Assembly (NCBI GenBank): GCA_951804945.1
Contig: OX638155.1
Span: forward strand, 5,394,001-5,458,000
Origin: Podarcis cretensis
Lineage: Eukaryota
Direction of reading: 5' to 3'
Length of the DNA stretch: 64,000 bases
In this document: in pieces, positions 1 to 40,456 of the stretch
Numbering within the stretch: the first letter of the stretch is position 1
Layout of the letters: every line of letters begins with the position of its first letter
Position numbers and translations under genes: made by a program
The notes under the pieces: model-generated
What the model was told of the DNA's origin: nothing
Databases searched by the model: none
Seen by the model: only the letters and a program-made list of their open reading frames with translations

Positions 1-2312
1 CTAAGAGCTCCAAGCAGTATTTCCAGCTGGATCCTCATTCTGGGGATGTGACAGTAAAGGATAAAATAGATCGGGAGTCCCTGTGTGGTCAGAATGAACC
101 TTGTGTTCTACTCTCTGAAATAGTACTGGAAAAGCCATTGCAGCTACACAGAATTGAAGTTCAGATAGAGGACGTGAATGATAATTCCCCCAAATTCTCT
201 AAAAATCAATTCCTTCTTGAAATACCTGAGCAGACTCCTGTGGATATCAGATTCCCTTTGGAAAGTGCAGAAGATACAGACAAAGGAAAAAATGCTGTTC
301 AGAACTACACCCTTAGTCCTAACGAACATTTTAGGCTGGATGTGCAAAGTCACAGTGATGGTAGCAAATATGCAGAATTGGTGTTAGAGAAATCGCTAGA
401 CCGTGAGGTGAATCCACAGATTTCCCTTATTCTGTCAGCAATTGATGGAGGAATCCCAAAAAGAACTGGAACAGCACAAATAATCATTGATGTTCTGGAT
501 GCTAATGATAATTTGCCTCAGTTTCCACAATCTGAGTACAAAGTGAAACTAAAGGAAAATAGCCCATTGGATACGCTGGTCACCAAAGTTGAAGCCACTG
601 ACAGGGATCTTGGTTTCTATGCACATATCACTTATTCATTCAGCCAAGTGCCAGAAAATGTAGTCAGATTGTTCAAGTTAAACAAATATTCCGGGGAGCT
701 TACTACTGCAGGAAAAATTGATTATGAAGAAAATACAAATTATAAGATGAACATCAGAGCTACAGACGGAGGGGGCCTTTCTGCTTACTGTAAAGTCATT
801 GTAGAGATTGAGGATGAGAACGACAATGCTCCAGAGATTACCATCACATCCATCACCAGTCCCTTACCTGAGGACTCTCCCCCAGACACAGTGGTGGCCC
901 TATTCAGTGTCACAGATGTGGACTCTGGAGACAGTGGCAGAACTGCCTGCACCACTGAAGTCAACCTGCCATTTGTGCTCAAATCCACAGAGAACAACTA
1001 TTACCGGCTGGTGACCCAACAGCCACTGGACAGAGAACAAGCCTCTGAGTATAACATCACCATCACAGCCACGGACAGAGGCTCTCCCAGACTCACTTCC
1101 ACAAGAATACTTCATGTGCAAATCTCAGATGTCAATGACAACCCTCCAGTCTTTGAAAAGCCATTCTATGAAATGCAGTTAAGAGAAAACAATATTCCTG
1201 GTCTTCTGATCAATTCAGTCCATGCTGTTGATCTGGACACAGCGCAGAATGCCAAGGTGACCTACTCGCTTTTGCCTGGGAAGGCCAGTGATGGCCCCAC
1301 ATCCTCTTACATCTCCATCAACTCTGAAACGGGGAACCTGTATGCCATTCGGTCTCTGGATTATGAGGAAGTAAAAGATTTCCAGGTGACGGTGAGGGCT
1401 GTGGATTCAGGTTCCCCTCCACTGAGCTCAGAAGTTCCCATCCGCGTTCAGGTCGTGGATGAAAATGACAATGCCCCCTTCATCCTCTACCCTCTCCAGA
1501 ATGGCACTTCCCCCTCAAATGACCTGGTTCCCCGAGGGGCAGAGACTGGCTACCTGGTCACCAAGGTGGTGGCTGTGGACAGGGATTCTGCGCAGAACTC
1601 TTGGCTTTCCTACCAGCTGCTGAAGGCCACAGAGCCGGGTCTGTTCACGGTGGGGGCCCAGAATGGAGAAGTGACCACCCTGAGGCCGGTCAGCAACCGA
1701 GACAGCTTCAAGCAGAATCTGATTGTGGTGGTCCGAGACAATGGCCATCCTCCCCAGTCCACCTCTGCCACGCTCAGAATCCTGCTAGTGGACGGCTTCT
1801 CTGACCCTTATCTGAAAAGTGTGGCTCTCCCAAAGGAGGAAACAGTGGAGGAGGAAGACCCCAGCCTGACTATGTATCTGATCATCTGCTTGGCTGCCAT
1901 CTCAAGCATCTTTCTCTTTTCTGTGGTGGCGTTTGTTGTCATCAAGTTGCAGAAACGTGAAAAGTTCAAAGGAACTTACAACTCTGGAGCCAATTTCCCG
2001 GTGGGACCTGATTCCCAGGAGATTTCTGCGGATTCTGGTGCTGGATCTCTATCCCAGGCTTACAACTATGAGGTGTGCTTAGCTGGTGGGTCTCTGAACA
2101 GCGAGTTCCGGTTTCTCAGGCCCCTGTTTCCTGTTTTCTCTGTGGAGCCTCCTAACACTCAGCTGAATCCAAGGAGTTCCAATGATTCTGACGGAGTCCC
2201 CAGTCATGCAGGTGAAAGTCAAAACATTATCCAGGTGAGTTCAGCATTTGAATCCTTTGAGCGTGGTTTAATTTCATTTTCTCTCTCTAGTTTGGTCCCC
2301 TTGTATCTGTGA
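1..2312 (+). CDS. PCDHB: Clustered protocadherin beta-type variable exon, class A copy 1 (A1); 5'-truncated by the window edge
   Basis: Frame is open from position 3 (KSSKQYFQLDPHSG...). It has six cadherin repeats (DRE, DxNDN, AxDxG), a TM helix (MYLIICLAAISSIFLFSVVAFVVI) and the beta-type cytoplasmic motif YEVCLAGGSLNSEFRFLRP. Donor CAG|GTGAGT at 2234/2235. Family-level symbol only. Confidence 0.93.
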   Translation, partial: KSSKQYFQLDPHSGDVTVKDKIDRESLCGQNEPCVLLSEIVLEKPLQLHRIEVQIEDVNDNSPKFSKNQFLLEIPEQTPVDIRFPLESAEDTDKGKNAVQNYTLSPNEHFRLDVQSHSDGSKYAELVLEKSLDREVNPQISLILSAIDGGIPKRTGTAQIIIDVLDANDNLPQFPQSEYKVKLKENSPLDTLVTKVEATDRDLGFYAHITYSFSQVPENVVRLFKLNKYSGELTTAGKIDYEENTNYKMNIRATDGGGLSAYCKVIVEIEDENDNAPEITITSITSPLPEDSPPDTVVALFSVTDVDSGDSGRTACTTEVNLPFVLKSTENNYYRLVTQQPLDREQASEYNITITATDRGSPRLTSTRILHVQISDVNDNPPVFEKPFYEMQLRENNIPGLLINSVHAVDLDTAQNAKVTYSLLPGKASDGPTSSYISINSETGNLYAIRSLDYEEVKDFQVTVRAVDSGSPPLSSEVPIRVQVVDENDNAPFILYPLQNGTSPSNDLVPRGAETGYLVTKVVAVDRDSAQNSWLSYQLLKATEPGLFTVGAQNGEVTTLRPVSNRDSFKQNLIVVVRDNGHPPQSTSATLRILLVDGFSDPYLKSVALPKEETVEEEDPSLTMYLIICLAAISSIFLFSVVAFVVIKLQKREKFKGTYNSGANFPVGPDSQEISADSGAGSLSQAYNYEVCLAGGSLNSEFRFLRPLFPVFSVEPPNTQLNPRSSNDSDGVPSHAGESQNIIQVSSAFESFERGLISFSLSSLVPLYL

Positions 2313-3103
2313 GTTGGTAGCCTGAATTCAGCTGAGTGAACAAAATATGAATGTGGGTTTGAAATTCTACTTTAAAAATTCTGTTCCATTTACCTGTGAC
2401 CTTGTATTTTGATATTGTTGTTTCTGTCCTTGCATAGAGGAATATACACTTTCGTATTAATATTTTTGTGGTTTGATGTGCTATAGAATAACTTCATAAC
2501 CTCTTTAAACACTCTGTATGGGAGGGGGGTGTCACTCAAAAGCTGAGATACCGATTGTTTTCAGATGACCAGTTTATTACTTTTTCAAAAAGAAATAAAG
2601 TGATACAAAGAAAAAAAGAGGGGAATGAGGAAAAAGAAGAACAATGCTGTGTATAAGAATTTTTTTTTACAAAAAATCAATGTAATGCACTCCCATACTG
2701 TAATCCATACATACGTATTAATAGCCTGCTGCATTCTCTGTGTGCAGGGCATATAGCATCAAGCAAAAGTTATCATACACTTTCCAAGGTATTTTCGTGT
2801 CGTTTTCCTCACTGCAAACTGTTTGACTGAGGGCCAGGGAGGGAGACTGTTCCACAAGAGCACCATATGTACTGTGCATCTTGAATTTCCACGTATTAGA
2901 TTGAATCCCATGCACAACAATGTAGAACTATAGAAGGTAATTTTGTGATATTTGCATTCATTCATATGGAAAAGAGGCATCTTCCTAGTAATAAAACAGA
3001 CTTTTATGAACAGAGAAACAGTGAATCTGAAGCTTTCCTGTACAGTGTAATGTGCACTGCATTCAGTGTTATTTACTGAATCTTAGTGGCTTTTCTTTGC
3101 TCA

Positions 3104-3120
3104 GCCACACGGTGGTAGTA
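3104..3120 (+). promoter_or_regulatory. CSE / CTCF-like promoter element of B1
   Basis: GCCACACGGTGGTAGTA, ~247 bp upstream of ATG 3351; matches the CTCF core CCAC.AGGTGGC at the position of clustered-Pcdh CSEs. Confidence 0.65.
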
Positions 3121-3350
3121 CAGGCAAAGACATGAACTGGAATTCAGAATTTTGTGAAGGAACTCACAGGAAGCCATGAGCAAAAAGGTGGCTGGAACAA
3201 AGGACGGGTGACTTTCATATGTGATAAAGAGATAACATAAAGTACAGCAAAGCCATCAACACGGCAGCATCAAATTCCTTTCTACAGCAGCAGAGATTAT
3301 CACTGGAAGACTGTCAGAAACTTCATCTTTTGGCCAGAGATTCTTGAGCC

Positions 3351-5780
3351 ATGGGAGACGGCTACAGAAAGGAACAAGGTCTGTATTTTTTGCTTTTCCT
3401 TTGTCTTCCTGGAGCACTGAGTATTTCACTTCACTATTCTGTGCCTGAAGAAAAGAAAAGGGGGTCTTTGGTGGCTAATGTGCTGGAGGATTTGAAACTG
3501 GGAACAGGGGAGCTCTCTGCTCGCAGAGCCCAGCTGGTTTCTAAGAACACTAAGCATTATTTTCATCTTGATACCAAGACTGGGAATTTGTTGATAAATG
3601 ATAAAATAGACCGAGAAACATTATGTGGCCAGACTGATCCTTGCTTATTACAGTCTGAAATAGTGTTGCAAAATCCCTTAAAGATCTACAGTATTGAAGT
3701 CAAGATAGAAGATGTGAATGACAATGTCCCTAAATTCTCTAAAAAGGCATTTGATCTGGAAATTCCTGAAAATTTCTCACCAAATACTCATTTCCCTTTG
3801 GAATCTGCCCGAGATGAGGACCTGGGGATAAATAACATCCAAAACTACACTCTCAGTCCCAATGAATATTTCCGGCTTGATGTTAAAAGTGAAGAGGATG
3901 GAAACAAGTATGTGGATCTTGTCCTGGAGAAGCCGCTGGACAGGGAGAAGGACTCACACTTTAGACTGACTCTCACAGCTGTTGATGGAGGGGAGCCACA
4001 GAGAACAGGCACAGTTCAAATAAATATTGATGTTCTTGACAATAATGATAATTCCCCACAGTTTACTCATTCTGAATATAAAGTAAGGTTAAAGGAAAAC
4101 AGCCCACAGGGTGCTCTGGTCTTCAAAGTGGAAGCTACAGATTTGGATTTCGGTTCAAATGCACAGATCACCTACTCATTCCACCGGGTACCTGAAAAAA
4201 TATATGATTTGTTCCACCTAAATGAAATCACGGGGGAAATCACTCTTTCTGGTCAGCTTGATTATGAAAAAGAAACCAGCTACAGCATGAACATCAGAGC
4301 AACAGATGGAGGGGGACTTTTGGATCACTGCAAGGTCCTAGTAGAGACTGAAGACGTGAATGACAATGTCCCTGAAGTGTCCATCATATCCATCACTAGT
4401 CCTTTGGCAGAGGATTCTCCCCTGGAGACACTTGTGGCTCTCTTCACTGTCGCAGATCGAGACTCTGGAGACAATGGCAGAACCATGTGCTCTGCGGAGG
4501 CAAACCTTCCTTTTATGTTAAAACCCACTATGAATAACTATTACCAGCTTGTGGTCCAAAGTCCCTTGGACAGAGAGAAGGTCTCAGAGTATAATATCAC
4601 CATCACAGCCATTGACCGAGGCTCCCCCAGGCTCACTTCAACAAGAATGATTAATGTTCAGATCTCAGATGTCAATGACAACCCTCCAGTATTTGATAAG
4701 TCTTCATGTGAAATGCAGATACGGGAAAACAATATTCCAGGACTGCTCATTGGCTCAGTCCGTGCTGCTGATCTGGACACGGAGAAGAATGCCAAGGTCA
4801 CCTACTCCCTTTTGCCTGGGAAGGTCACTGATGGCCTTGTGGCCTCTTACATCTCGGTCAACTCCGAAAGCGGAAATCTGTATGCCCTCCGATCTCTGGA
4901 TTACGAGCAGATCAAAGATTTCACAGTGACGGTGAGGGCTACAGATGGAGGGTCTCCTCCCCTCAGCTCAGAAGTTACTGTCCGAGTCGTAATCCTAGAC
5001 GAAAACGACAACGCTCCCTTCTTCCTCTACCCTCTTCAGAACAGCACATCCCCCTGCAATGAGCTGGTGCCCAAGTCGGTGGAGGCCGGCTACCTGGTCA
5101 CCAAGGTGGTGGCTGTGGATGGAGATTCTGGCCAGAACTCGTGGCTTTCCTATGAGCTGCTGAAGGCCACAGACCCTGGTCTTTTCAGCATAGGAGCCCA
5201 GAATGGGGAAGTGAGAACCAGGAGAGCCCTGAGCGAGCGAGACACCAGCAAGCAGAGACTCCTGATAGTGGTCAGGGACAACGGGCTCCCTCCCCAGAGC
5301 AGCACTGCCATGCTCCATGTCCTTCCCGTGGGTGGCTTTTCGGATCCTTATATGAAGGCTGTGGAGGTCAGTAAAGAGGAACAGGAAGAAGATGGGAGCT
5401 TGACCTTGTACTTGGTGATCTGCCTGGCTGCCGTCTCCTTTGTGTTCCTTGTTTGCATTGTTTCCTTTGCTGCCATCAAGATCTGCAGGAGGGATCCCAG
5501 GGAAAGTTTTATCGCTGCCCCTCCTCACTTCCCACCTGCCAGACCCGACATCCCAGAGAACTGTGGCGATTCTCAGAGCGGGTCTCTTTCCAGGAGTTAC
5601 CACTACGATGTGTGCTTAACCGGTGGGTCCTTGAGCAGCGAGTTCAGGTTCCTCAGGCCCCTCATTCCTGTTTTTTCTGTGGGGGACCCAAACCTCAATG
5701 TGAACCACACCCCTCCTTCTGCTTCCCAAGATATTCCTGACCAGGTGGGGAAAGAAGAATCAGAGGAAAAGGTGAAATAA
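3351..5780 (+). CDS. PCDHB: Protocadherin beta-type variable exon, class B copy 1 (B1)
   Basis: 809-aa ORF with signal peptide, YSVPEE EC1 start, six EC repeats, TM and YDVCLTGGSLSSEFRFLRP motif; donor AAG|GTGAAA at 5771/5772. Confidence 0.93.
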   Translation: MGDGYRKEQGLYFLLFLCLPGALSISLHYSVPEEKKRGSLVANVLEDLKLGTGELSARRAQLVSKNTKHYFHLDTKTGNLLINDKIDRETLCGQTDPCLLQSEIVLQNPLKIYSIEVKIEDVNDNVPKFSKKAFDLEIPENFSPNTHFPLESARDEDLGINNIQNYTLSPNEYFRLDVKSEEDGNKYVDLVLEKPLDREKDSHFRLTLTAVDGGEPQRTGTVQINIDVLDNNDNSPQFTHSEYKVRLKENSPQGALVFKVEATDLDFGSNAQITYSFHRVPEKIYDLFHLNEITGEITLSGQLDYEKETSYSMNIRATDGGGLLDHCKVLVETEDVNDNVPEVSIISITSPLAEDSPLETLVALFTVADRDSGDNGRTMCSAEANLPFMLKPTMNNYYQLVVQSPLDREKVSEYNITITAIDRGSPRLTSTRMINVQISDVNDNPPVFDKSSCEMQIRENNIPGLLIGSVRAADLDTEKNAKVTYSLLPGKVTDGLVASYISVNSESGNLYALRSLDYEQIKDFTVTVRATDGGSPPLSSEVTVRVVILDENDNAPFFLYPLQNSTSPCNELVPKSVEAGYLVTKVVAVDGDSGQNSWLSYELLKATDPGLFSIGAQNGEVRTRRALSERDTSKQRLLIVVRDNGLPPQSSTAMLHVLPVGGFSDPYMKAVEVSKEEQEEDGSLTLYLVICLAAVSFVFLVCIVSFAAIKICRRDPRESFIAAPPHFPPARPDIPENCGDSQSGSLSRSYHYDVCLTGGSLSSEFRFLRPLIPVFSVGDPNLNVNHTPPSASQDIPDQVGKEESEEKVK

Positions 5781-7527: not shown

Positions 7528-7974
7528 TAATGAGAAATGAGGGGTGAAGGCATTAAGTTCTGTGGCTTATACTTTGAAACTTGGCAACATATGTTTTGTA
7601 TAGTGCCTTCCTGCAAGTGCAGGACATGATTAGACATGGTTAAGATTGTGCTGTAAGATCTGCTGAACAGAACACTCAGCCGTGCACAGACCCTGTAACC
7701 TGAGTTCCCACCAGACTGATGTCAGATCAAGCACATCAGAAGTCTTTACCATTGCTTGGAAGAGACTCTTGCTGTTCCCTGCATTCTCCATACCCTCGAC
7801 ACAAATTAAAGAAGCAACTTGTTCCTGTCCCCTGAGCCAACAAGCAAGAAAGAAAGCTGGGAATATGGGGTTTATTTCCACTGGGGTGGCTGTTCTCTTG
7901 CCTCTCCACATGGATGTTTACCAGCTCTTATTCTGGAAAATCTTTTGTTTTTTTGCAACGCCATAACATAGTCC

Positions 7975-7995
7975 AAACACAAGGTGGTGGTATTG
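7975..7995 (+). promoter_or_regulatory. CSE / CTCF-like promoter element of A2
   Basis: AAACACAAGGTGGTGGTATTG, ~262 bp upstream of ATG 8237; the same motif precedes all class A genes. Confidence 0.6.
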
Positions 7996-8236: not shown

Positions 8237-10708
8237 ATGGAAATGCACCTCAAGATCAGGCAAGTTTGGTCTTTTTCCCTGTGTCTCTGTGCATGCATAG
8301 CAATGTGTGAGTCCTTGCTCTATTCAGTGCCAGAGGAGGAGGAAAGTGGGTCTCTGGTAGCGAATGTGCTAAAAGATTTGAGAGTGGATGCAAAGGAGCT
8401 GTCTGCTCGGAGAGCCCGGCTGGTTTCTAAGAGCTCCAAGCAATATTTCCAGCTGGATCCTCATTCTGGGGATGTGACAGTAAAGGATAAAATAGATCGG
8501 GAGTCCCTGTGTGGTCAGAATGAACCATGTATTCTACTGTCTGAAATTGTGCTGGAAAAGCCATTGCAGCTACACAGAATTGAAGTTCAGATAGAGGACG
8601 TGAATGATAATTCCCCCAAATTCTCTAAAGATCAATTCCTTCTTGAAATATCAGAGCAAATTGCAACAAATACCCGATTTCCTTTGGAAAAAGCTCAAGA
8701 CTCAGACAAAGGAGAAAATTCTGTTCAGAACTACACCCTTAGTCCTAATGAACATTTTAGGCTGAATTTGAAAAGTCATAGTGATGGTAGCAAATATGCA
8801 GAACTGGTGTTAGAGAAACCGCTAGACCGTGAGGTAAATCCACACATTCATCTTACTCTGTCAGCTATCGATGGGGGGATCCCAAAAAGAACTGGAACAG
8901 CACAGCTTCTCATCAATATTCTGGATGCTAATGATAATGTACCTCAGTTTCCACAATCTGAGTACAAAGTGAAAGTAATGGAAAACAGCCCATTGGATAC
9001 ATTGGTCGCAAAAGTGGAAGCCACTGACAGGGATTTTGGTTCCTATGCTCACATCACTTATTCCTTCAGTGAAGTTCCAGAAAATGTGTTGAGATCATTC
9101 AAGTTAAACAAACACACTGGGGAACTTACAGTTGTAGGGATGATTGACTATGAAGAAATCAGCAGTTATGAGATGCACATCAAAGCCACAGATGGAGGGG
9201 GGCTTTCAGCTTACTGCAAAGTAATTGTGGACATTGAAGATGAGAATGACAATGCCCCAGAGATATCAATCACTTCCATCACCAGTCCCTTACCTGAGGA
9301 CTCTCCCCCAGACACAGTGGTGGCCCTTTTCAGTGTCACAGACGTGGACTCCGGGGACAGTGGCAGAACTGCCTGCACCACTGAAGTCAACCTGCCATTT
9401 GTGCTCAAACTCACAGAGAACAACTATTACCAGCTGGTGACCCAACAGCCACTGGACAGAGAACAAGCCTCTGAGTATAACATCACCATCACAGCCACAG
9501 ACAGGGGCTCTCCCAGACTCACTTCCACAAGAATACTTCATGTTCAAATCTCAGATGTCAATGACAACCCTCCAGTCTTTGATAAGCCATTCTATGAAAT
9601 GCAGTTAAGAGAAAACAATATTCCTGGTCTTCTGATCAATTCGGTCCATGCTGTTGATCTGGACACAGCGCAGAATGCCAAAGTGACTTACTCGCTTTTG
9701 CCTGGGAAGGTCAATGATGGCCCCACATCCTCTTACATCTCCATCAACTCTGAAACGGGGAACCTGTATGCCATCCGGTCACTGGATTATGAGGAAGTAA
9801 AATATTTCCATGTGACGGTGAGGGCTGTGGATTCAGGTTCCCCTCCACTGAGCTCAGAAGTTCCCATCCGCATTCAGGTTGTGGATGAAAATGACAATGC
9901 CCCCTTCATCCTCCACCCTCTCCAGAATGGCACTTCCCCCTCAAATGACCTGGTTCCCCGAGGGGCAGAGACTGGCTACCTGGTCACCAAGGTGGTGGCT
10001 GTGGACAGGGATTCTGCGCAGAACTCTTGGCTTTCCTACCAGCTGCTGAAGGCCACAGAGCCGGGTCTGTTCATGGTGGGGGCCCAGAATGGAGAAGTGA
10101 CCACCCTCAGGCCGGTCAGCAACCGAGACAGCTTCAAGCAGAATCTGATTGTGGTGGTCCGAGACAACGGCCATCCTCCCCAGTCCACCTCTGCCACGCT
10201 CAGAATCCTTCTAGTGGACGGCTTCTCTGACCCTTATCTGAAAAGTGTGGCTCTCCCAAAGGAGGAAACCGTGGAGGAGGAAGACCCCAGCCTGACTATG
10301 TATCTGATCATCTGCTTGGCTGCCATCTCAAGCATCTTTCTCATTTCTGTTGTGGCGTTTATTGTAATCAAGTTGCAGAAACGTGAAAAGTTCATAGAAA
10401 CCTACAACTCTGCAGCCAATTTCCCGGTGGGACCGGATTCCCAGGAGAACTCTGTGGATCCTGGTGCTGGATCTCTATCCCAGGCTTACAACTATGAGGT
10501 GTGCTTAGCTGGTGGGTCTCTGAACAGCGAGTTCCGGTTTCTCAGGCCCCTGTTTCCTGTTTTCTCTGTGGAGCCTCCTAACACTCAGCTGAATCCAAGG
10601 AGTTCCAATGATTCTGACGGAGTCCCCAGTCATGCGGGTGAAAGTCAACATGGGGTTCAGGTGAGAGTACCATTTGAATGGTTTAATTTCAAATATTTCT
10701 CTCTTTAG
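8237..10708 (+). CDS. PCDHB: Protocadherin beta-type variable exon, class A copy 2 (A2)
   Basis: ORF 8204-10708; likely start ATG 8237 (MEMHLKIRQV, homologous to the A5 start); six EC repeats, TM, beta motif; donor CAG|GTGAGA at 10660/10661. Confidence 0.93.
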   Translation: MEMHLKIRQVWSFSLCLCACIAMCESLLYSVPEEEESGSLVANVLKDLRVDAKELSARRARLVSKSSKQYFQLDPHSGDVTVKDKIDRESLCGQNEPCILLSEIVLEKPLQLHRIEVQIEDVNDNSPKFSKDQFLLEISEQIATNTRFPLEKAQDSDKGENSVQNYTLSPNEHFRLNLKSHSDGSKYAELVLEKPLDREVNPHIHLTLSAIDGGIPKRTGTAQLLINILDANDNVPQFPQSEYKVKVMENSPLDTLVAKVEATDRDFGSYAHITYSFSEVPENVLRSFKLNKHTGELTVVGMIDYEEISSYEMHIKATDGGGLSAYCKVIVDIEDENDNAPEISITSITSPLPEDSPPDTVVALFSVTDVDSGDSGRTACTTEVNLPFVLKLTENNYYQLVTQQPLDREQASEYNITITATDRGSPRLTSTRILHVQISDVNDNPPVFDKPFYEMQLRENNIPGLLINSVHAVDLDTAQNAKVTYSLLPGKVNDGPTSSYISINSETGNLYAIRSLDYEEVKYFHVTVRAVDSGSPPLSSEVPIRIQVVDENDNAPFILHPLQNGTSPSNDLVPRGAETGYLVTKVVAVDRDSAQNSWLSYQLLKATEPGLFMVGAQNGEVTTLRPVSNRDSFKQNLIVVVRDNGHPPQSTSATLRILLVDGFSDPYLKSVALPKEETVEEEDPSLTMYLIICLAAISSIFLISVVAFIVIKLQKREKFIETYNSAANFPVGPDSQENSVDPGAGSLSQAYNYEVCLAGGSLNSEFRFLRPLFPVFSVEPPNTQLNPRSSNDSDGVPSHAGESQHGVQVRVPFEWFNFKYFSL

Positions 10709-11395: not shown

Positions 11396-12231
11396 TTTTT
11401 CTCTCTAGTTTGGTCCCCCTATATCTGTGATGTGCAAGCCTGAATTCAGCTGAGTGCAGGAAATCTGAATACGAATTTGAAATTCTTCCCATATTTTTCC
11501 TGTTCAGTTTCCCTGTGTTGTATTCTGATATTGTTCTTTCTGCACTTGCATAGAGGGATATAAACTTTCATATTTATAGTTTTGTGGTTTGATGTGCTAT
11601 AGAATAACTTCATAACCTCTTTAAACTCTCTGTATGGGAGGGGGGTGTCATGCAAAAGCTGAGATACAGGTTGCTTCCATATGACCTGTTTATTGATCAT
11701 TCATTCTTACTACTTAAAAGAAAGAAAGAAATAAAGTTTTAAAGGGGGAGGGGGGAGAAGTGAGGAAAAAAAGAACACAGCTGTGTATATAAATTGATAT
11801 AGTGTTATTATCCTAATACTTATGTAGATATTCATAGCCTGCTACATTCTCGGTGTGAAAACCATATGGCACTTGAATCAAGCAATAGTAACCCTACATT
11901 TTCCAAGGTGTTTTCCTGTCAATTTCTTTATTGCAAAATGTTTGATTGAGGTGGGAAGGAGGGAGATTGTTCCACAAGAGCACCATATGTGCTGTGCAAC
12001 CTGAATTCCCCGTATTAGATTGACTCCCATGCACAACAGTGTTCAAGAACTATAGAAAGTAATGCATTGTTTTGTGATATCTGCATTCATTCATATGGAA
12101 AAGAGGCATCTTCCTAGTAAAAAAACAGTTTTTATGAACAGAGAAACAGTGAATCTGAACCTTTCCTGTTCTGTATAAAGTGTTCTGCATTCAGTGTTAT
12201 TTACTGAATCTTAGTGGCTTTTCTTTGCTCA

Positions 12232-12248
12232 GCCACACGGTGGTAGTA
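12232..12248 (+). promoter_or_regulatory. CSE / CTCF-like promoter element of B2
   Basis: GCCACACGGTGGTAGTA, identical to the B1 element, 247 bp upstream of ATG. Confidence 0.65.
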
Positions 12249-27504: not shown

Positions 27505-27525
27505 AAACACAAGGTGGTGCAATTG
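27505..27525 (+). promoter_or_regulatory. CSE / CTCF-like promoter element of A4
   Basis: AAACACAAGGTGGTGCAATTG with an upstream TGCATTT module, 281 bp before ATG 27786. Confidence 0.62.
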
Positions 27526-27785: not shown

Positions 27786-30233
27786 ATGAAAACCCTCCAT
27801 TATAGCAGGCAAGTTTGTCTCTTCTTTATCTGTCTCTGTACCTGTGGTGTGGTGTGTGAGTCCTTCCGCTATTCAGTGCCTGAGGAAAAGAAAAGTGGGT
27901 CTCTGGTGGCTAATCTGCTGAAAGATTTGAAAATGGAGGTAAAGGAGCTGTCTGCTCGGAGAGCGCAGCTGCTTTCTAAGACTGCCAAGCAGTATTTTGA
28001 GCTGGATCCCCAGTCTGGGGATGTGATAATAAAAGATAAAATAGACCGGGAGTCCCTGTGTGTTCAGAATGACCCTTGTGTTCTGCTTTGTGAAATGGTG
28101 CTGGAAAAGCCATGGCAGCTGCACAGAATTGAGATTCAAATAGAAGACGTGAATGATAATTCCCCCAGATTCTCTGAAAAACAATTTGTCTTGGAAATAC
28201 CTGAGCAGACACCCACAAATACCCGATTCATTTTGGAAAAAGCTCAAGATTCAGACAAAGGACAAAATGCTGTTCAGAACTATACTCTTAGTCCAAATGA
28301 ACATTTTAGACTGGATGTGGAAAGTCACACTGATGGTAGCAAATATGCAGAACTGGTATTAGAAAAGCCTTTGGACCGTGAGGAGAAGCCACAGGTTGCA
28401 TTAATGCTGTCAGCTGTTGATGGAGGGATCCCAAGAAGAAGCGGAAGTACACAAATTATTGTTCGGGTTCTGGACACCAATGACAATGCTCCTCACTTTA
28501 ATAAATCTGTATATAATGTTCAACTACTGGAAAACCTTCCACCAGGTACACTGGTCACCAAAGTTGAAGCCACAGACAGGGATCTTGGTTCCTACGCACA
28601 TATCACTTATTCATTCAGCCAAGGGTCAGAAAATGTGTTGAGAATGTTCAAGTTAAATAAACACACCGGGGAGCTTACTACTGCGGCAACAATCGATTAT
28701 GAAGAAAACACAAATTATGAGATGAACATCAGAGCTACAGATGGAGGGGGCCTTTCTGCTTACTGCAAAGTCATTGTAGAGATTGAGGATGAGAACGACA
28801 ATGCTCCAGAGATTACCATCACATCCATCACCAGTCCCTTACCTGAGGACTCTCCCCCAGACACAGTGGTGGCCCTCTTCAGTGTCACAGATGTGGACTC
28901 TGGAGACAGTGGCAGAACTGCCTGCACCACTGAAGTAAACCTGCCATTTGTGCTCAAACCCACCGAGAACAACTATTACCGGCTGGTGACCCAACAGCCA
29001 CTGGACAGAGAACAAGCCTCTGAGTATAACATCACCATCACAGCCACGGACAGGGGCTCCCCCAGACTCACTTCCACAAGAATACTTCATGTTGAAGTGT
29101 CAGATGTCAATGACAACCCTCCAGTGTTTGAAAAGCCATTCTATGAAATGCAGTTAAGGGAAAACAATATTCCTGGTCTTCTGATCAATTCAGTCCATGC
29201 TGTTGATCTGGACACAGCGCAGAATGCCAAAGTGACCTACTCGCTTTTTCCTGGGAAGGTCAATGATGGCCCCACATCCTCTTACATCTCCATCAACTCT
29301 GAAACGGGGAACCTGTATGCCATCCGGTCTCTGGATTATGAGGAAGTAAAAGATTTCCAGGTGACGGTGAGGGCTGTGGATTCAGGTTCCCCTCCACTGA
29401 GCTCAGAAGTTCCCATCCGCGTTCAGGTCGTGGATGAAAATGACAATGCCCCCTTCATCCTCTACCCTCTCCAGAATGGCACTTCCCCCTCAAATGACCT
29501 GGTTCCCCGAGGGGCAGAGACTGGCTACCTGGTCACCAAGGTGGTGGCTGTGGACAGGGATTCTGGCCAGAACTCTTGGCTTTCCTACCAGCTGCTGAAG
29601 GCCACAGAACCGGGTCTGTTCACGGTGGGGGCCCAGAATGGAGAAGTGACCACCCTCAGGCCGGTCAGCAACCGAGACAGCTTCAAGCAGAATCTGATTG
29701 TGGTGGTCCGAGACAACGGCCATCCTCCCCAGTCCACCTCTGCCACGCTCAGAATCCTGCTAGTGGACAGCTTCTCTGACCCTTATCTGAAAAGTGTGGC
29801 TCTCCCAAAGGAGGAAACCGTGGAGGAGGAAGACCCCAGCCTGACGATGTATCTGATCATCTGCCTGGCTGCCATCTCATGCATCTTTCTCATTTCTGTT
29901 GTGGCGTTTGTTGTCATCAAGTTGCAGAAACGTGAAAAGTTCATAGGAACCTACAACTCTGCAGCCAATTTCCCGGTGGGACCTGATTCCCAGGAGAACT
30001 CTGCGGATTCTGGTGCTGGATCTCTATCCCAGGCTTACAACTATGAGGTGTGCTTAGCTGGTGGGTCTCTGAACAGCGAGTTCCGGTTTCTCAGGCCCCT
30101 GTTTCCTGTTTTCTCTGTGGAGCCTCCTAACACTCAGCTGAATCCAAGGAGTTCCAGTGGGTCCCAAGAAGTGCCTTGTAATGAAGAAGAAACGCGTCTG
30201 AGATGTCAGGTGAGGATAATTAGTATAATATGA
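27786..30233 (+). CDS. PCDHB: Protocadherin beta-type variable exon, class A copy 4 (A4)
   Basis: The ORF track starts at a non-ATG codon (27570); first ATG is 27786 (MKTLHYSRQV signal peptide); donor CAG|GTGAGG at 30209/30210. Confidence 0.93.
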   Translation: MKTLHYSRQVCLFFICLCTCGVVCESFRYSVPEEKKSGSLVANLLKDLKMEVKELSARRAQLLSKTAKQYFELDPQSGDVIIKDKIDRESLCVQNDPCVLLCEMVLEKPWQLHRIEIQIEDVNDNSPRFSEKQFVLEIPEQTPTNTRFILEKAQDSDKGQNAVQNYTLSPNEHFRLDVESHTDGSKYAELVLEKPLDREEKPQVALMLSAVDGGIPRRSGSTQIIVRVLDTNDNAPHFNKSVYNVQLLENLPPGTLVTKVEATDRDLGSYAHITYSFSQGSENVLRMFKLNKHTGELTTAATIDYEENTNYEMNIRATDGGGLSAYCKVIVEIEDENDNAPEITITSITSPLPEDSPPDTVVALFSVTDVDSGDSGRTACTTEVNLPFVLKPTENNYYRLVTQQPLDREQASEYNITITATDRGSPRLTSTRILHVEVSDVNDNPPVFEKPFYEMQLRENNIPGLLINSVHAVDLDTAQNAKVTYSLFPGKVNDGPTSSYISINSETGNLYAIRSLDYEEVKDFQVTVRAVDSGSPPLSSEVPIRVQVVDENDNAPFILYPLQNGTSPSNDLVPRGAETGYLVTKVVAVDRDSGQNSWLSYQLLKATEPGLFTVGAQNGEVTTLRPVSNRDSFKQNLIVVVRDNGHPPQSTSATLRILLVDSFSDPYLKSVALPKEETVEEEDPSLTMYLIICLAAISCIFLISVVAFVVIKLQKREKFIGTYNSAANFPVGPDSQENSADSGAGSLSQAYNYEVCLAGGSLNSEFRFLRPLFPVFSVEPPNTQLNPRSSSGSQEVPCNEEETRLRCQVRIISII

Positions 30234-30511
30234 TTATATTCTGAATGAATAAAAATAATTATATTCAATCAATGATACTTGGTTGATGACTTAAGCTCAC
30301 TGAAAGAACAGGATACGTGGAAATGTAAGTAAGGTTTGAAATGTAGTGTACTTATCAATTTATTTTTTTCCTATTTATTGGTATGATTAAGAAAATTATT
30401 ATCGCATGTACACATGAGCTAACAGTTAAATGAGCATGAATCTAAACTCAATTTTCACTGGGCTGGTATTAAATAGACTTTATAGGCTATTAATGCATTT
30501 TTCTTAGATGA

Positions 30512-30527
30512 ACCACAAGGTGGCATT
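30512..30527 (+). promoter_or_regulatory. CSE / CTCF site of B4
   Basis: ACCACAAGGTGGCATT with upstream TGCATTT, 275 bp before ATG 30787. Confidence 0.7.
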
Positions 30528-30786
30528 ATTGGCAAGCACATTATTTTTTATTCACAATATTGCATTGTAGCAGCACTGAGGGGAAGCTATGAACAGACAA
30601 AACTGAACTAGAGAGGTGCAGGCTCCTTTTCTAGAAAGGAAATACAAAATTCAAGGGAGCAAGCATTGACCACGACAGGGGGAAAAAGAAACAATTTACA
30701 CAACAGCACAGGGAGCCACTGGAGAAAACCTAAAGATTGGTCTTTTGGCCAGAACCTATATATCTTATCAAGAAGGGAGAGAAACC

Positions 30787-33219
30787 ATGAAAGACTGCAT
30801 CAGGAACAGGCAAGGTCTGTATCTCTTCATCTTATTCTCTGTGTCTAGAGTGATGTGTATCTCAATACGTTATTCTGTGCCTGAAGAAAAGAAAAGTGGA
30901 TTTCTGGTGGCTAATATGCTGAAGGATTTGAAACTGGGAACAGGGGAGCTCTCTGCTCGCAGAGCCCAGCTAGTGTCCGAAAGCACAAAGCAATATTTCC
31001 ACCTTGATACCCACACTGGGAATCTGCTGATAAATGATAAAGTAGACAGGGAAGCTTTGTGTGGTGAGACTGATCCTTGCTTGCTGCTCTCTGAAATTGT
31101 GCTTCAAAACCCCTTAAAGATCTACAGTATAGAAATGGAGATAAAAGATGTAAATGACAATACTCCCAAATTCTCAAAAAAGGAATTCAAGATAGATATT
31201 CCAGAGAATGTCCCTATCAATACCCAATTCCCTTTGGAATCTGCACAAGATACAGATTTGGATAAAAATAGCATCCAAAACTACACTCTCAGTTCCAATG
31301 AGCATTTCTGGCTCCAAGTAAAAAGTGATGAAAGTGGAAACAAATATTTGGACCTTGTTTTGGTGAAACCTCTAGATAGGGAAGAAGCAGCGGAGTTTGG
31401 ACTGACTCTCACAGCTGTGGATGGAGGGGAGCCACAGAGAACAGGCACAGTTCAGATAAATATCAAGGTTTTGGACATCAATGATAATTTCCCTCAGTTT
31501 ACTCATTCTGAATATAAAGTAAGGTTAAAGGAAAACAGCCCTAGGGACACCCTGGTCTCCAAAGTAGAAGCCAGAGATTCAGATTTTGGTTCAAATGCAC
31601 GAATAACATACTCATTTGATCGGGTACCTGAAAAAATACACCGTTGCTTCCACTTAAATGATCTCACTGGGGAAATAACTGTTTTGGGACAAATAGATTA
31701 TGAAAAAGAAACCAGCTACAGCATGAGCATCAGGGCAACAGATGGAGGGGGTCTTTCAGGTCACTGCAAGGTCCTGGTAGAGATTGAAGACGTGAATGAC
31801 AATGTCCCTGAAGTGTCCGTCATATCCATCACTAGTCCTTTGGCAGAGGATTCTCCCCTGGAGACACTTGTGGCTCTCTTCAGTGTCGCAGACCGAGACT
31901 CCGGAGACAATGGCAGAACCGTGTGCTCTGCGGAGGCGAACCTTCCTTTTATGTTAAAACCCACTATGAATAACTATTACCAGCTTGTGGTCCAAAGTCC
32001 CTTGGACAGAGAGAAGGTCTCAGAGTATAATATCACCATCACAGCCGTTGACCAGGGCTCCCCCAAGCTCACTTCAACAAGAATTCTTAACGTTCAGATC
32101 TCTGATGTCAACGACAACCCTCCAGTATTTGAAAAGTCTTCATGTGAAATGCAGATACGGGAAAACAATATTCCAGGACTGCTCATTGGCTCAGTCCGTG
32201 CTGCTGATCTGGACACCGAGAAGAATGCCAAGGTCACCTACTCCCTTTTGGCTGGGAAGGTCACTGATGGCCTTGTGGCCTCTTACATCTCGGTCAACTC
32301 TGAAAGCGGAAATCTGTATGCCCTCCGATCTCTGGATTACGAGCAGATCAAAGATTTCACAGTGACGGTGAGGGCTACAGATGGAGGGTCTCCTCCCCTC
32401 AGCTCTGAAGTTACTGTCCGAGTCGTAATCCTAGACGAAAACGACAACGCTCCCTTCTTCCTCTACCCTCTTCAGAACAGCACATCCCCCTGCAATGAGC
32501 TGGTGCCCAAGTCGGTGGAGGCCGGCTACCTGGTCACCAAGGTGGTGGCTGTGGATGGAGATTCTGGCCAGAACTCGTGGCTTTCCTATGAGCTGCTGAA
32601 GGCCACAGACCCTGGTCTTTTCAGCATAGGAGCCCAGAATGGGGAAGTGAGAACCAGGAGAGCCCTGAGCGAGCGAGACACCAGCAAGCAGAGACTCCTG
32701 ATAGTGGTCAGGGACAACGGGCTCCCTCCCCAGAGCAGCACTGCCATGCTCCATGTCCTTCCCGTGGGTGGCTTTTCGGATCCTTATATGAAGGCTGTGG
32801 AGGTCAGTAAAGAGGAGCACGAAGAAGATGGGAGCTTGACCTTGTACTTGGTGATCTGCCTGGCTGCCGTCTCCTTTGTGTTCCTTGTTTGCATTGTTTC
32901 CTTTGCTGCCATCAAGATCTGCAGGAGGGATCCCAGGGAAAGTTTTATCGCTGCCCCTCCTCACTTCCCACCTGCCAGACCCGACATCCCAGAGAACTGT
33001 GGCGATTCTCAGAGCGGGTCTCTTTCCAGGAGTTACCACTATGATGTGTGCTTAACCGGTGGGTCCTTGAGCAGCGAGTTCAGGTTCCTCAGGCCCCTCA
33101 TTCCTGTTTTTTCTGTGGGGGACCCAAACCTCAATGTGAACCAGACCCCTCCTTCTGCTTCCCAAGATATTCCTGACCAGGCGGGGAAAACAGAATCAGG
33201 GAAAGAGGTGAGCAATTAG
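30787..33219 (+). CDS. PCDHB: Protocadherin beta-type variable exon, class B copy 4 (B4)
   Basis: First ATG 30787 (ACCATGA; MKDCIRNRQG); six EC repeats, TM, beta motif; donor GAG|GTGAGC at 33207/33208. Confidence 0.93.
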   Translation: MKDCIRNRQGLYLFILFSVSRVMCISIRYSVPEEKKSGFLVANMLKDLKLGTGELSARRAQLVSESTKQYFHLDTHTGNLLINDKVDREALCGETDPCLLLSEIVLQNPLKIYSIEMEIKDVNDNTPKFSKKEFKIDIPENVPINTQFPLESAQDTDLDKNSIQNYTLSSNEHFWLQVKSDESGNKYLDLVLVKPLDREEAAEFGLTLTAVDGGEPQRTGTVQINIKVLDINDNFPQFTHSEYKVRLKENSPRDTLVSKVEARDSDFGSNARITYSFDRVPEKIHRCFHLNDLTGEITVLGQIDYEKETSYSMSIRATDGGGLSGHCKVLVEIEDVNDNVPEVSVISITSPLAEDSPLETLVALFSVADRDSGDNGRTVCSAEANLPFMLKPTMNNYYQLVVQSPLDREKVSEYNITITAVDQGSPKLTSTRILNVQISDVNDNPPVFEKSSCEMQIRENNIPGLLIGSVRAADLDTEKNAKVTYSLLAGKVTDGLVASYISVNSESGNLYALRSLDYEQIKDFTVTVRATDGGSPPLSSEVTVRVVILDENDNAPFFLYPLQNSTSPCNELVPKSVEAGYLVTKVVAVDGDSGQNSWLSYELLKATDPGLFSIGAQNGEVRTRRALSERDTSKQRLLIVVRDNGLPPQSSTAMLHVLPVGGFSDPYMKAVEVSKEEHEEDGSLTLYLVICLAAVSFVFLVCIVSFAAIKICRRDPRESFIAAPPHFPPARPDIPENCGDSQSGSLSRSYHYDVCLTGGSLSSEFRFLRPLIPVFSVGDPNLNVNQTPPSASQDIPDQAGKTESGKEVSN

Positions 33220-36305: not shown

Positions 36306-37749
36306 GTCTTCTTGCTGTACGGTGACTTGCCACACTAAGGGCAGTCTTTGGGTTACCTGCTGTATTCCTTCCCTTTGCCAGGTTAACATCACATGAGTTA
36401 GTTTGTAGTGTCTAGGTCTGCAACCTCCTGCTGACTCCCAAGTTTTCTTTCTCTGACCATCCTGCTTGTGAGAGTGGAATTAGACCGGCTCAAAAATTAC
36501 TTTGCAATGAGGTAAAAAGTGCTTCTCTAGCTCTTCTTTGTCTGTTTTAAAACAGTTTCATCTGGACATTTGTGAGTCTCCTTGGAAGGATTATATTTCC
36601 TACTGCTGGCTCCATAGTGCACAAAAGAGTGTTTACTTGCTGTTCCTGTGTCCAGATGTCTGGAAGAACCTTTGGAATCTGCTTATCTAAAGTGGCCAGC
36701 CTTCAGAGTGCTGGAAATCAAATTATTTGTGCAATGTGGAAATCAACCAGGGATGGAGTAGCCCTGTTCAGAGGGGTCATAGATGGCTTGGACTCACCTT
36801 TATGGGTCATTGTAGACTCTCTTAGTTCCAGGTCTCGCCTCTCCCTCTGTTTTCTTTCCTCCTTTTCTGGAGTGATACCCCATCAGTAGCTGCACCAGCA
36901 GAGCCTTCCTGCAGGTACTCTTGGTTTCCAGGCCTCTCTTTCGCCTGTTATTTTGAGAGATAAACACTGTGGCTGCAGTAGGTGGGCCTCCTAGTATTCT
37001 CTGAGTGTTAACCTGTGACTACCTTTCTGTTTTGTGAGGCTGTCAGAACACTGCAGGGAACATAGATAGTCTCCATTCTGACACCATGTGGGATTGACAG
37101 AGCACCAGGTAAAGCATGACTAACTTAAATTTCCTGCTTGCGACCTCTACCCTCCTTGCACGGTGCCACCCATATATACAGCTAACACCCCCATATCTAT
37201 TGGGACTGGTAGGGCAGAAGGCAGGGAGACCAACAGTAGGTGGAGCCAGAACTAATGATAGCAAGATCCAGACTCCATTCTGAGGTCTGCAAGGGCAACA
37301 CTGAAACTAAGTGGGGAGAATGTGAGGAGCAGTGCCACCTCCAGAACTGGTAGTATGTAAGAATCAAGACAGAGAGATGGATGGGACAGTACCTCATTTG
37401 CCTTAACACGCCAGCCTCCATTATTGGCAATTGTTTGTATTTTTCAGATATTGTCTCATTAATGTGTGAAATGTATCCAGAGGTTAGTTTACATTATCTG
37501 GCTTTAGTTGAGTGATGGCCTGAGCTGTGTGCAAAATTCCATGTTCATATAATGAATTTGTATACACATTCCATATCTTCCAGTTAATATGGGGTCAATG
37601 TTATTTATTCACCTTCACAAACAGGCTCACATTAACGGCAAACCCCAAGATCTGCATCCATATCTTTCTCTATAAGGAACTTTGTATAGATATTAATAGT
37701 AAGGCGTGAGGAACAGCTAACTGACAAAGATTGCAGTTATATGTGTTTC

Positions 37750-37770
37750 AAACACAAGATGGTGCCATTG
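37750..37770 (+). promoter_or_regulatory. CSE / CTCF-like promoter element of A5
   Basis: AAACACAAGATGGTGCCATTG with an upstream TTGCAGTT module, 238 bp before ATG 37988. Confidence 0.62.
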
Positions 37771-37987: not shown

Positions 37988-40456
37988 ATGGAAATGAATA
38001 ACTGGAACAGGCAAGTGACTTTTTTCTTTCTGTCTCTCTGCATGTATGGGGCAATATGCAATTCCATCCAATATTCAGTGCCAGAGGAAAGGAAAACAGG
38101 GTCTCTGGTGGCTAATGTGCTGAAAGATTTGAAAGTGGATGTAAAGAACCTTTCTGCTCGGAGAGCCCGGCTGGTTTCTAAGAGCACCAAGCAGTATTTC
38201 CAGCTGGATCCCCATTCTGGGGATTTGATATTAAAGGATAGAATAGATCGAGAGGCTCTCTGTGGTCAGAATGACCATTGTGTTCTGCTCTCTGAAATTG
38301 TGCTAGAAGATCCATTGAAGCTATATATAATTGAAGTTCAAATAGAGGATGTGAATGATAATTCCCCCAAATTCTCTAAAGATCAATTTATTTTTGAAAT
38401 ACCTGAGCAAACTCACATAAATACTGTATTCCCTTTGGAGAGAGCTCAAGATTCAGACAAAGGAAAAAATACTATTCAGAATTACACGCTTAGTCCTAAT
38501 AAGTATTTTAGGTTGGATGTGCAGAGTCACAGTGATGGTACTAAATATGCAGACCTAGTACTGGAGAAACCATTAGACCGTGAGGTGGAAGCACAGCTTT
38601 TCCTAATTCTGTCAGCTGCTGATGGAGGAATACCCCACAAAACTGGAACAGCACAAATCATCATAGATGTTCTGGACAACAATGATAATGCTCCTCTATT
38701 TAATAAATCCGTGTACCAGGAAAAACTGATGGAAAACAGCCCATTGGGTACATTAGTCACAAGAGTTGAAGCCAGAGACAAGGATATTGGTTCCAATGCT
38801 GAAATCACTTACTCATTTAGCCAAGTGCCAGAAAATGTGCAGAGATCATTCAGGTTAAATAAAAATACTGGGGAACTTACTATCTCAGGTATAATTGATT
38901 ATGAAGAAAGCTCAAATTATGAAATAAAAATCAGAGCTACAGATGGAGGGGGCCTTTCTGCTTACTGTAAAGTTATTGTAGAGATTGAGGATGAGAACGA
39001 CAATGCTCCAGAGATTACCATCACATCCATCACCAGTCCCTTACCTGAAGACTCTCCCCCAGACACAGTGGTGGCCCTCTTCAGTGTCACAGATGTGGAC
39101 TCTGGAGACAGTGGCAGAACTGCCTGCACCACTGAAGTAAACCTGCCATTTGTACTAAGACCGACGGAGAACAACTATTACCAGCTGGTAACCCAACAGC
39201 CACTGGACAGAGAACAAGCCTCTGAGTATAACATCACCATCACAGCCACAGACAGGGGCTCTCCCAGACTCACTTCCACAAGAATACTTCATGTTCAAAT
39301 CTCAGATGTCAATGACAACCCTCCAGCGTTTGAAAAGCCATTCTATGAAATGCAGTTAAGAGAAAACAATATTCCAGGTCTTCTGATCAATTCGGTCCAT
39401 GCTGTTGATCTGGACACAGCGCAGAATGCCAAAGTGACCTACTCGCTTTTGCCTGGGAAGGTCAATGATGGCCCCACATCCTCTTACATCTCCATCAACT
39501 CTGAAACGGGGAACCTGTATGCCATCCGGTCTCTGGATTATGAGGAAGTAAAAGATTTCCAGGTGACGGTGAGGGCTGTGGATTCAGGTTCCCCTCCACT
39601 GAGCTCAGAAGTTCCCATCCGCGTTCAGGTTGTGGATGAAAATGACAATGCCCCCTTCATCCTCTACCCTCTCCAGAATGGCACTTCCCCCTCAAATGAC
39701 CTGGTTCCCCGAGGGGCAGAGACTGGCTACCTGGTCACCAAGGTGGTGGCTGTGGACAGGGATTCTGCGCAGAACTCTTGGCTTTCCTACCAGCTGCTGA
39801 AGGCCACAGAACCGGGTCTGTTCACGGTGGGGGCCCAGAATGGAGAAGTGACCACCCTGAGGCCGGTCAGCAACCGAGACAGCTTCAAGCAGAATCTGAT
39901 TGTGGTGGTCCGAGACAATGGCCAACCTCCCCAGTCCACCTCTGCCACGCTCAGAATCCTGCTAGTGGACGGCTTCTCTGACCCTTATCTGAAAAGTGTG
40001 GCTCTCCCAAAGGACGAAACAGTGGAGGAGGAAGACCCCAGCCTGACAATGTATTTGATCATCTGCCTGGCTGCCATCTCAAGCATCTTTCTCATTTCCG
40101 TAGTGGCGTTTGTTGTCATCAAGTTGCAGAAACGTGAAAAGTTCATAGGAACCTACAACTCCGCAGCCAATTTCCCGGTGGGACCTGATTCCCAGGAGAA
40201 CTCTGTGGATCCTGGTGCTGGATCTCTATCCCAGGCTTACAACTATGAGGTGTGCTTAGCTGGTGGGTCTCTGAACAGCGAGTTCAGGTTTCTCAGGCCC
40301 CTGTTTCCTGTTTTCTCTGTGGAGCCTCCTAACACTCAGCTGAATCCAAGGAGTTCCAATGATTCTGAAGGTGTAGCCGGTCATGCAGGTGAAAGTCAAC
40401 ATGGGGTTCAGGTGAGAACACTGTTGGGAATTTGTTTTCTAATATTTAATTTTTAA
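37988..40456 (+). CDS. PCDHB: Protocadherin beta-type variable exon, class A copy 5 (A5); last beta gene
   Basis: First ATG 37988 (MEMNNWNRQV); six EC repeats, TM, beta motif; donor CAG|GTGAGA at 40411/40412. Confidence 0.93.
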   Translation: MEMNNWNRQVTFFFLSLCMYGAICNSIQYSVPEERKTGSLVANVLKDLKVDVKNLSARRARLVSKSTKQYFQLDPHSGDLILKDRIDREALCGQNDHCVLLSEIVLEDPLKLYIIEVQIEDVNDNSPKFSKDQFIFEIPEQTHINTVFPLERAQDSDKGKNTIQNYTLSPNKYFRLDVQSHSDGTKYADLVLEKPLDREVEAQLFLILSAADGGIPHKTGTAQIIIDVLDNNDNAPLFNKSVYQEKLMENSPLGTLVTRVEARDKDIGSNAEITYSFSQVPENVQRSFRLNKNTGELTISGIIDYEESSNYEIKIRATDGGGLSAYCKVIVEIEDENDNAPEITITSITSPLPEDSPPDTVVALFSVTDVDSGDSGRTACTTEVNLPFVLRPTENNYYQLVTQQPLDREQASEYNITITATDRGSPRLTSTRILHVQISDVNDNPPAFEKPFYEMQLRENNIPGLLINSVHAVDLDTAQNAKVTYSLLPGKVNDGPTSSYISINSETGNLYAIRSLDYEEVKDFQVTVRAVDSGSPPLSSEVPIRVQVVDENDNAPFILYPLQNGTSPSNDLVPRGAETGYLVTKVVAVDRDSAQNSWLSYQLLKATEPGLFTVGAQNGEVTTLRPVSNRDSFKQNLIVVVRDNGQPPQSTSATLRILLVDGFSDPYLKSVALPKDETVEEEDPSLTMYLIICLAAISSIFLISVVAFVVIKLQKREKFIGTYNSAANFPVGPDSQENSVDPGAGSLSQAYNYEVCLAGGSLNSEFRFLRPLFPVFSVEPPNTQLNPRSSNDSEGVAGHAGESQHGVQVRTLLGICFLIFNF

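Follow-up and report, generated by a model that had tools for sequence, protein, structure and literature searches.

Two interleaved classes of protocadherin-beta genes and a predicted shared constant exon in the lizard Podarcis cretensis

The beta array and its surroundings

The window analysed here, 64,000 nucleotides of contig OX638155.1 (positions 5,394,001 to 5,458,000) from Podarcis cretensis, covers the 3' portion of a clustered protocadherin-beta array of a lacertid. It contains nine intact beta-type open reading frames in the order A, B, A, B, A, B, A, B, A, where a first-pass annotation had placed them (Table 1), and gamma-type frames lie 3' of the array at 50520 and 56356. The site is the clustered protocadherin locus, between alpha and gamma. 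Searches with the C-terminal regions gave Podarcis, Lacerta and Zootoca as the best named protein matches (92-99% identity), and the relatives are named protocadherin beta in the databases. Each beta gene encodes a signal peptide, six EC repeats, a transmembrane segment and a short cytoplasmic part in one large exon, and the exons stand in tandem, all on one strand. A1 is truncated by the window edge, its start lying at about -189. The frame ends first annotated, past the splice donor, are probably intronic read-through.

With 90 kb of sequence upstream of the window added, the whole beta array comprises 16 genes: A A B A B A(pseudo) B A B A B A B A B A, or A-(A-B)7-A, with a single A-A junction. 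The perfect alternation first reported is confirmed for the nine frames of the window, and there are 14 class changes over the full array. At least 14 changes among nine A and seven B genes would arise by chance with probability 8/11440 (7e-4), and perfect alternation of the window genes alone with probability 1/126. The sixth gene, of class A and about 11.3 kb upstream of the window, has an in-frame TAG in EC5 at codon 461 of the mature protein; apart from the TAG it is intact, and its EC5-6 is still about 97-99% like class A. In the window, stop-to-ATG gaps from A to B are short (1038, 1770, 469 and 553 nucleotides) and those from B to A long (2423, 2852, 4570 and 4768), as had been noted, but the rule fails upstream, where an A-to-B gap of 3.66 kb exceeds two of the B-to-A gaps.

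A de novo motif search found a shared motif 211-300 bp upstream of 16/16 beta genes, in one orientation, and also before both gamma exons. We take it to resemble the CTCF core. CGCT-type elements were not found before the beta exons. The motif would thus be a conserved CTCF-type promoter element and putative binding site, one per gene. Two further features were seen at the locus. The first gamma exon (50520) carries a 30-residue EC5 insertion (51978-52090) absent from every other gene here, and the alpha-to-beta interval has a 486-aa open frame at contig positions 5329736-5331193, presumably a LINE ORF2 fragment.

Table 1. Beta exons, promoter motifs and predicted shared 3' end, in window coordinates
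Feature	Position	Strand	Remark
Beta variable exon, class A (A1, 8th of 16; 5' end upstream of window)	1..2234	+	phase-0 GT donor end
CTCF/CSE-like promoter motif of B1	3098..3121	+	motif search
Beta variable exon, class B (B1)	3351..5771	+	to donor AAG/GTGAAA
CTCF/CSE-like promoter motif of A2	7970..7993	+	motif search
Beta variable exon, class A (A2; alternative ATG 8204)	8237..10660	+	to donor
CTCF/CSE-like promoter motif of B2	12226..12249	+	motif search
Beta variable exon, class B (B2)	12479..14899	+	to donor
CTCF/CSE-like promoter motif of A3	17586..17609	+	motif search
Beta variable exon, class A (A3; alternative ATG 17788)	17821..20244	+	to donor
CTCF/CSE-like promoter motif of B3	20549..20572	+	motif search
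Beta variable exon, class B (B3)	20786..23206	+	to donor
CTCF/CSE-like promoter motif of A4	27500..27523	+	motif search
Beta variable exon, class A (A4)	27786..30209	+	to donor
CTCF/CSE-like promoter motif of B4	30506..30529	+	motif search
Beta variable exon, class B (B4)	30787..33207	+	to donor
CTCF/CSE-like promoter motif of A5	37745..37768	+	motif search
Beta variable exon, class A (A5, last beta gene)	37988..40411	+	to donor CAG/GTGAGA
Polypyrimidine tract and CAG acceptor of the constant exon	42904..42933	+	in frame like LYPLQ segment at beta EC6 start
Predicted beta constant exon, coding: 39 codons + TAG, phase 0	42934..43053	+	single copy (genome search)
Predicted shared 3' UTR, to ~44800	43054..44800	+	AATAAA first at 44105, next 45310

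Age and distribution of the two classes

For comparison, 248 squamate proteins were classed by similarity from EC5 to the tail, a redundant set (isoform and annotation versions) in which Anolis is over-represented. Trees were built from no more than three rows for each taxon label and class (48 A and 48 B, together with five mammal or bird pieces and two gamma exons). A and B are reciprocally monophyletic in the EC1-3, EC4 and EC5-6 trees (support 0.62-0.96), and jointly they group with mammal and bird beta, apart from gamma. Inside each class the EC5-6 tree clusters by species. Both classes are found in geckos, skinks, lacertids, an amphisbaenian, an anguid, iguanians and snakes. By these trees, A and B are old, squamate-wide clades.

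The gene order, on the other hand, is not conserved across squamates. In the anole the alternation is absent, an outcome that the first-pass annotation had named as counting against its idea: 15/15 published beta genes are of class B (numbers 6-9 being assigned from the accession series). Anolis sagrei retains at least one class A gene, and in Phrynosoma five consecutive locus tags (017123-017127) are all class B. Gene models that fuse neighbours run from A to B in seven cases, from B to A in three or four, A-A in one and B-B in one or two, so that 10-11 of about 14 unite A with B (in vipers, a cobra, a gecko and Phrynosoma), although fusions can skip genes. These mixed models across taxa suggest that A/B adjacency is old and widespread outside lacertids. 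Given such old pairing, there may be some selection for keeping both classes. One Hemicordylus beta protein (P0266) is 62-63% identical to A and B alike and carries the shared constant tail described below; it possibly represents a third beta class, of which this genome shows no member.

Homogenisation within classes

Mean amino acid identity within A, within B and between the classes is 0.97, 0.98 and 0.75 in EC5, 0.99, 1.00 and 0.71 in EC6, and 0.90, 0.91 and 0.44 in the cytoplasmic part. EC4 is homogenised in part (0.95 within A, 0.89 within B) and EC1 is without homogenisation (0.84 and 0.83). The first-pass claim of near-identity within a class and contrast between classes from EC4 to the cytoplasmic region therefore holds from EC5 onwards and only partially for EC4. 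Within-class dS (A/B) is 0.28/0.39 in EC1, 0.58/0.49 in EC2 and 0.51/0.43 in EC3, and 0.14/0.22 in EC4, 0.059/0.036 in EC5 and 0.037/0.014 in EC6; GC3 climbs from 0.33/0.42 in EC2 to 0.72/0.73 in EC6. Comparing genes from the two extremes of the array gives 77-82% identity in EC2-3 (77-87% in EC1-3) versus 98% in EC5-6, a pattern that favours conversion over recent duplication.

Identical tracts reach at most 33 nt between classes, compared with maxima of 111-316 nt within A and 257-578 nt within B, so that present homogenisation appears restricted to the class. No A-B conversion tract was found at 512 near-fixed sites, where each gene shows at most three consecutive states of the other class. 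Tract lengths and near-fixed sites thus uphold the earlier proposal that each class is homogenised only with itself. The A-versus-B dS has its minimum in EC6 (0.52, versus 1.86 in EC2), consistent with ancient cross-class exchange or a shared GC bias. The anole beta genes, all class B, are weakly homogenised (amino acid identity about 0.77 in EC4-5 and 0.91 in EC6). Judged from these identities, conversion is much stronger in this lacertid than among anole beta genes.

Class marks and the interfaces

Class-diagnostic columns (101 A and 127 B rows) number 3 in EC1, 2 in EC2, 4 in EC3, 3 in EC4, 2 in EC5, 10 in EC6 and 7 in the cytoplasmic part. Outside the linker and transmembrane segment, 27 class-specific columns are conserved across squamates, and neutrality of gene order leaves these unexplained. 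EC1 position 36 is R in 69/101 A rows and Q in 124/127 B rows, and EC4 positions 319/321 are mostly T/T in A and S/I in B. By end-point offsets to the alpha7 chain they map to alpha7 residues 36/322/324, which are described as specificity determinants whose swaps alter alpha7/alpha8 specificity (Goodman 2016, PMC5106212, in the part available). A class mark at EC1:EC4 specificity positions is thus plausible from residue patterns. For mouse, specificity of subfamilies at EC1:EC4 has been published, and the available text of the same paper has EC1:EC4 adding to isoform specificity. The two-tier code first proposed, with class set by EC1/EC4 and isoform by EC2/EC3, survives as far as the class marks at EC1/EC4 positions go; its clean division does not, since variation of EC1 among isoforms almost reaches that of EC2/3 and class-diagnostic columns are most numerous in EC6. 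The gammaB-type charge switch (E41/K338/R340) does not separate A from B: at the corresponding positions 40/341/343, assigned by hand, both classes of this genome have mostly K, S/T and T/A.

At the cis interface, the core residues Y532, L555, K558, V560, V562 and S570 (PMC8901172 numbering) are the majority state in both classes, with L555 and V560 in 101/101 A rows and 126/127 B rows. The impaired EC6-only face (R560, V555) of the carrier-dependent cPcdhs (alpha, gammaC4) is absent from A and B. As the core residues are common to both, neither class looks carrier-dependent. Position 595 is T in lacertid A and R in lacertid B, and K in both classes in most squamates; in the accessible part of PMC8901172, R595 is the residue conserved there and S595 acts against the EC6-only side. 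Position 544, close to the EC6 start, is a conserved Cys in class B and Ser in class A.

How the alternation may have arisen

Among the three central cassettes the A-to-B spacers match at 82-89%; two of the B-to-A spacers have blocks of 87-96% in common, and a third does so in part. The remaining spacers, which are the majority, have in common only the promoter block or transposon pieces. Duplication of two-gene units is shown by the homologous spacers of the central cassettes. That the amplified unit was an A+B cassette, as gap lengths had suggested, is not borne out: gap length does not set the phase, and EC1-3 distances favour B-then-A, tracking such pairs with a Mantel rho of 0.71 (p 0.022) versus 0.46 (p 0.11) for A-then-B, a comparison of seven pairs of each kind in which neighbours are not independent.

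The array can be pictured as follows. By the trees, the A/B split predates the divergence of geckos, skinks, lacertids, iguanians and snakes. DNA identity between A and B is now about 55-81% along the gene, and at this distance misalignment would pair A only with A and B only with B. Unequal crossover in register would then gain or lose whole two-gene units, and gene conversion would even out the part from EC4/5 to the cytoplasmic end inside each class, while EC1-3 would remain diverse and supply isoform identity. Such like-with-like misalignment would produce both the alternation and the class-limited conversion with no need for selection on order. The alternating order and the class-only homogenisation are thus likely by-products of homology-dependent recombination, and the A/B alternation by itself is a clean case of known tandem-array dynamics.

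A predicted beta constant exon

In 16/16 beta exons a phase-0 GT donor is present at the homologous position, 117 nt past the RPL motif (114 in the first gene). Among the squamate beta models, which are automated NCBI gene models, one shared tail of 36-40 residues ends 118/248 (49 A and 69 B, from 18/25 taxon labels); it is absent from 130/248 models, and 7/25 taxon labels are without it. The tail maps to 42934-43050 with 37/39 identity, preceded by a pyrimidine tract and CAG and followed by TAG. A genome search found no second copy of this exon. No match to alpha or gamma constant exons was found, the own-genome search, with E up to 1, returning the exon itself and EC6 segments. Splicing to the gamma constant exons had also been considered and was dropped, as the tail maps to 42934. 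The search with the tail (57/63 candidates) gave squamates for all named matches and missed gecko tails, and a search of representative sequences gave one direct match, a 74-aa piece; both searches are uninformative on turtles, crocodiles, birds and tuatara. Bird beta models (P0035, P0040) have C-termini like each other and different from the squamate tail save for a short acidic patch.

Four public runs were compared over 40290-44800, three of which, from three organisms and three studies, we guessed to be RNA. In 3/3 of these putative RNA runs a contig begins at 42931-42932 with no loose end, that is, exactly at the acceptor. Contig starts alone are a weak hint, and depth at the acceptor is 57/109/15 against 7/2-4/0 in the intron in the three runs. 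In the fourth, genome-sized run, a contig (42239-44289) passes straight over the acceptor. No joint of donor to acceptor was found among the matches listed for the putative RNA contigs; a start at the acceptor is the pattern expected if many donors fork onto one acceptor. In one run, depth reaches 663 on the contig that covers the 3' end common to class A genes, versus 64-100 for unique contigs; this depth is not a copy number. Contigs of the three putative RNA runs also cover most of the predicted 3' UTR. High-copy repeats, under very deep multi-contig cover, lie in the intron and predicted 3' UTR at 40570-40825, 42110-42160 and 44250-44640.

These features suggest that all beta exons likely splice onto one shared tail exon, unlike the textbook single-exon beta gene. 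A neuron would pick promoters gene by gene through the observed motifs, and the donor of the chosen exon would join the acceptor at 42934, so that A and B isoforms alike would get the same short tail and 3' UTR. The shared tail would likely standardise trafficking or mRNA handling, and the shared 3' end would stop the transcript before the gamma exons. Beta genes are described without a constant exon in what was available of the anole paper (PMC2764143), a 2020 review (PMC7811963) and a mouse study (PMC3431597), and constant exons only for alpha and gamma in the corresponding part of PMC4978886. No published reptile beta constant exon was found among openly available papers by title or abstract start. 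As far as found, the exon is present in automated NCBI models and apparently unremarked.

Proposed origin of the predicted constant exon

The constant exon with its flanks aligns without gaps to the start of class A EC6 over 50 codons and to gamma exons over 37 codons. Ungapped scores of 81, 68 and 59 compare with highest shuffled scores of 38, 47 and 39, and tblastn against EC6 gives an E of about 2.5e-6 within the 10 kb spacer. At the DNA level the constant exon region aligns to variable exons with scores of 194 and 191 against shuffle maxima of 202 and 191, which is not significant. A profile of the tail scores 22 bits on gamma and 9-10 on beta exons. The acceptor CAG coincides with the Gln of the beta LYPLQ segment, whose codons form a pyrimidine run ending in CAG in 15/16 living beta exons (CAA in the seventh gene); one relative has LFLYSLQ at this position. 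The same latent acceptor at the EC5/EC6 junction could also allow in-frame splicing into the EC6 of a downstream gene.

In protein sequence, the constant exon resembles an exonised EC6 relic of beta or gamma type. A splice-acceptor-like stretch at the EC6 start of a decayed variable exon would have been recruited in frame. The near-invariant DWLxY end suggests a putative short binding motif.

Alternative explanations

Could neighbouring A and B genes be co-regulated or preferred cis-dimer partners, with selection keeping the alternation? Heterologous partners are favoured in cPcdh cis dimers in the portion of PMC8901172 available, and EC6, the cis domain, is richest in class-diagnostic columns (10), but the core cis residues are alike in A and B and neither class looks carrier-dependent. 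The T/R contrast at position 595 is lacertid-specific. A-to-B adjacency recurs in vipers and other lacertids, but A-A and B-B neighbours are also known (this genome; models P0001 and P0293), the anole is 15/15 B, and Phrynosoma has its five consecutive B tags. Further, every gene has its own promoter motif, and one A pseudogene stands next to an intact B gene. A selected partnership is thus rather unlikely, and so, on residue and motif evidence, are the co-regulation and cis-partner roles that the first-pass annotation had raised and any paired A/B function. By analogy with gammaA/gammaB, A and B likely function as separate subfamilies rather than in linked pairs. Very recent duplication or mis-assembly might also produce near-identical 3' halves and a repeat pattern; the spacer DNA of the three central cassettes is 82-96% alike, and such repeats led to mis-assembled Pcdh scaffolds in fugu, according to the part of that report at hand. 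We regard this as very improbable, because similarity between most spacers is confined to the promoter block or transposon pieces, same-class genes differ by 15-25% in EC2-3, both classes occur in other lacertid assemblies (92-99% in the searched C-terminal regions), and the window has no N.

The exon at 42934 might instead be a decayed variable-exon fragment or a minor cryptic exon, beta mRNAs being mostly single-exon as in mammals. Its homology to EC6 fits such a fragment, but the frame, stop position and DWLxY end are kept from geckos to vipers while EC6 core residues are lost. The anole paper (PMC2764143), where splice sites were checked by RT-PCR, reports no beta constant region in its available text, yet the same anole genes have the tail in later NCBI models. 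The models and taxon labels without a tail (130/248 and 7/25), and the lack of a donor-acceptor joint among the matches listed, favour this reading; an at least 8-fold step in contig depth exactly at the acceptor, in three studies, and donors kept in 16/16 genes oppose it. On balance it is distinctly unlikely, and splicing of the beta exons onto a shared constant exon is preferred.

Comparison with known systems

The gammaA/gammaB genes of mammal, anole and coelacanth likewise form two interspersed paralog classes through block or pair duplication, as published in what is available of PMC2764143 and PMC3283317. Pair duplication and subgroup-limited conversion are found in lizard A/B too, as are subfamily-level marks at EC1:EC4. 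In contrast, the lizard interspersion is in the beta subcluster and its alternation is nearly perfect; the consulted part of the anole paper (PMC2764143) calls interspersion apparently unique to gamma. The gammaB charge switch, as mentioned, has no counterpart between A and B. Mammalian and anole Pcdh-beta genes have the same place between alpha and gamma, one large exon and own promoters, but are described as one paralog group of single-exon genes with no constant region, whereas the lizard array has two classes and a predicted constant exon. The single paralog subgroup holds for the 15 anole genes only, and donors, tail exon and contig starts predict that the lizard genes depart from the single-exon plan as well.

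Conversion among fugu and zebrafish Pcdh genes, in the available descriptions, gave the same near-identical 3' halves, EC4/EC5 boundary, raised GC3 and divergence between subgroups. There, the converting paralogs lie in local subclusters, unlike the lizard, where two converting sets are interleaved gene by gene. The alpha and gamma clusters also have many variable exons with phase-0 donors to a shared downstream coding sequence. They use three constant exons, whereas lizard beta would use one 39-codon terminal exon with a stop and only EC6 matches in the genome.

Implications

Our overall reading, which we consider probable, is that this lizard has two old beta classes, that their alternation and homogenisation are likely recombination by-products, and that the exons are likely expressed from their own promoters onto one shared constant exon. 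With somewhat less assurance, we favour the view that squamates rebuilt a variable-plus-constant architecture in beta, in which a dead EC piece became the shared tail, from geckos to vipers, of two ancient subfamilies that differ in their EC1:EC4 and EC6 surfaces. The constant exon is the more novel part, compared with the alternation. The 2020 review (PMC7811963), in its available part, allows two routes to beta, descent from variable exons of gamma or duplication of a complete gamma cluster; retained donors and a tail without match to other constant exons fit an origin from gamma variable exons, followed by a new gain. If true, the constant exon overturns the rule that beta protocadherins are single-exon genes. 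It would offer a traceable example of a piece of ectodomain taken up, in frame, as an intracellular motif, and would provide a new signalling or trafficking motif common to both beta subfamilies. Through this one small exon, the whole lizard beta cluster could then be tagged or knocked out.
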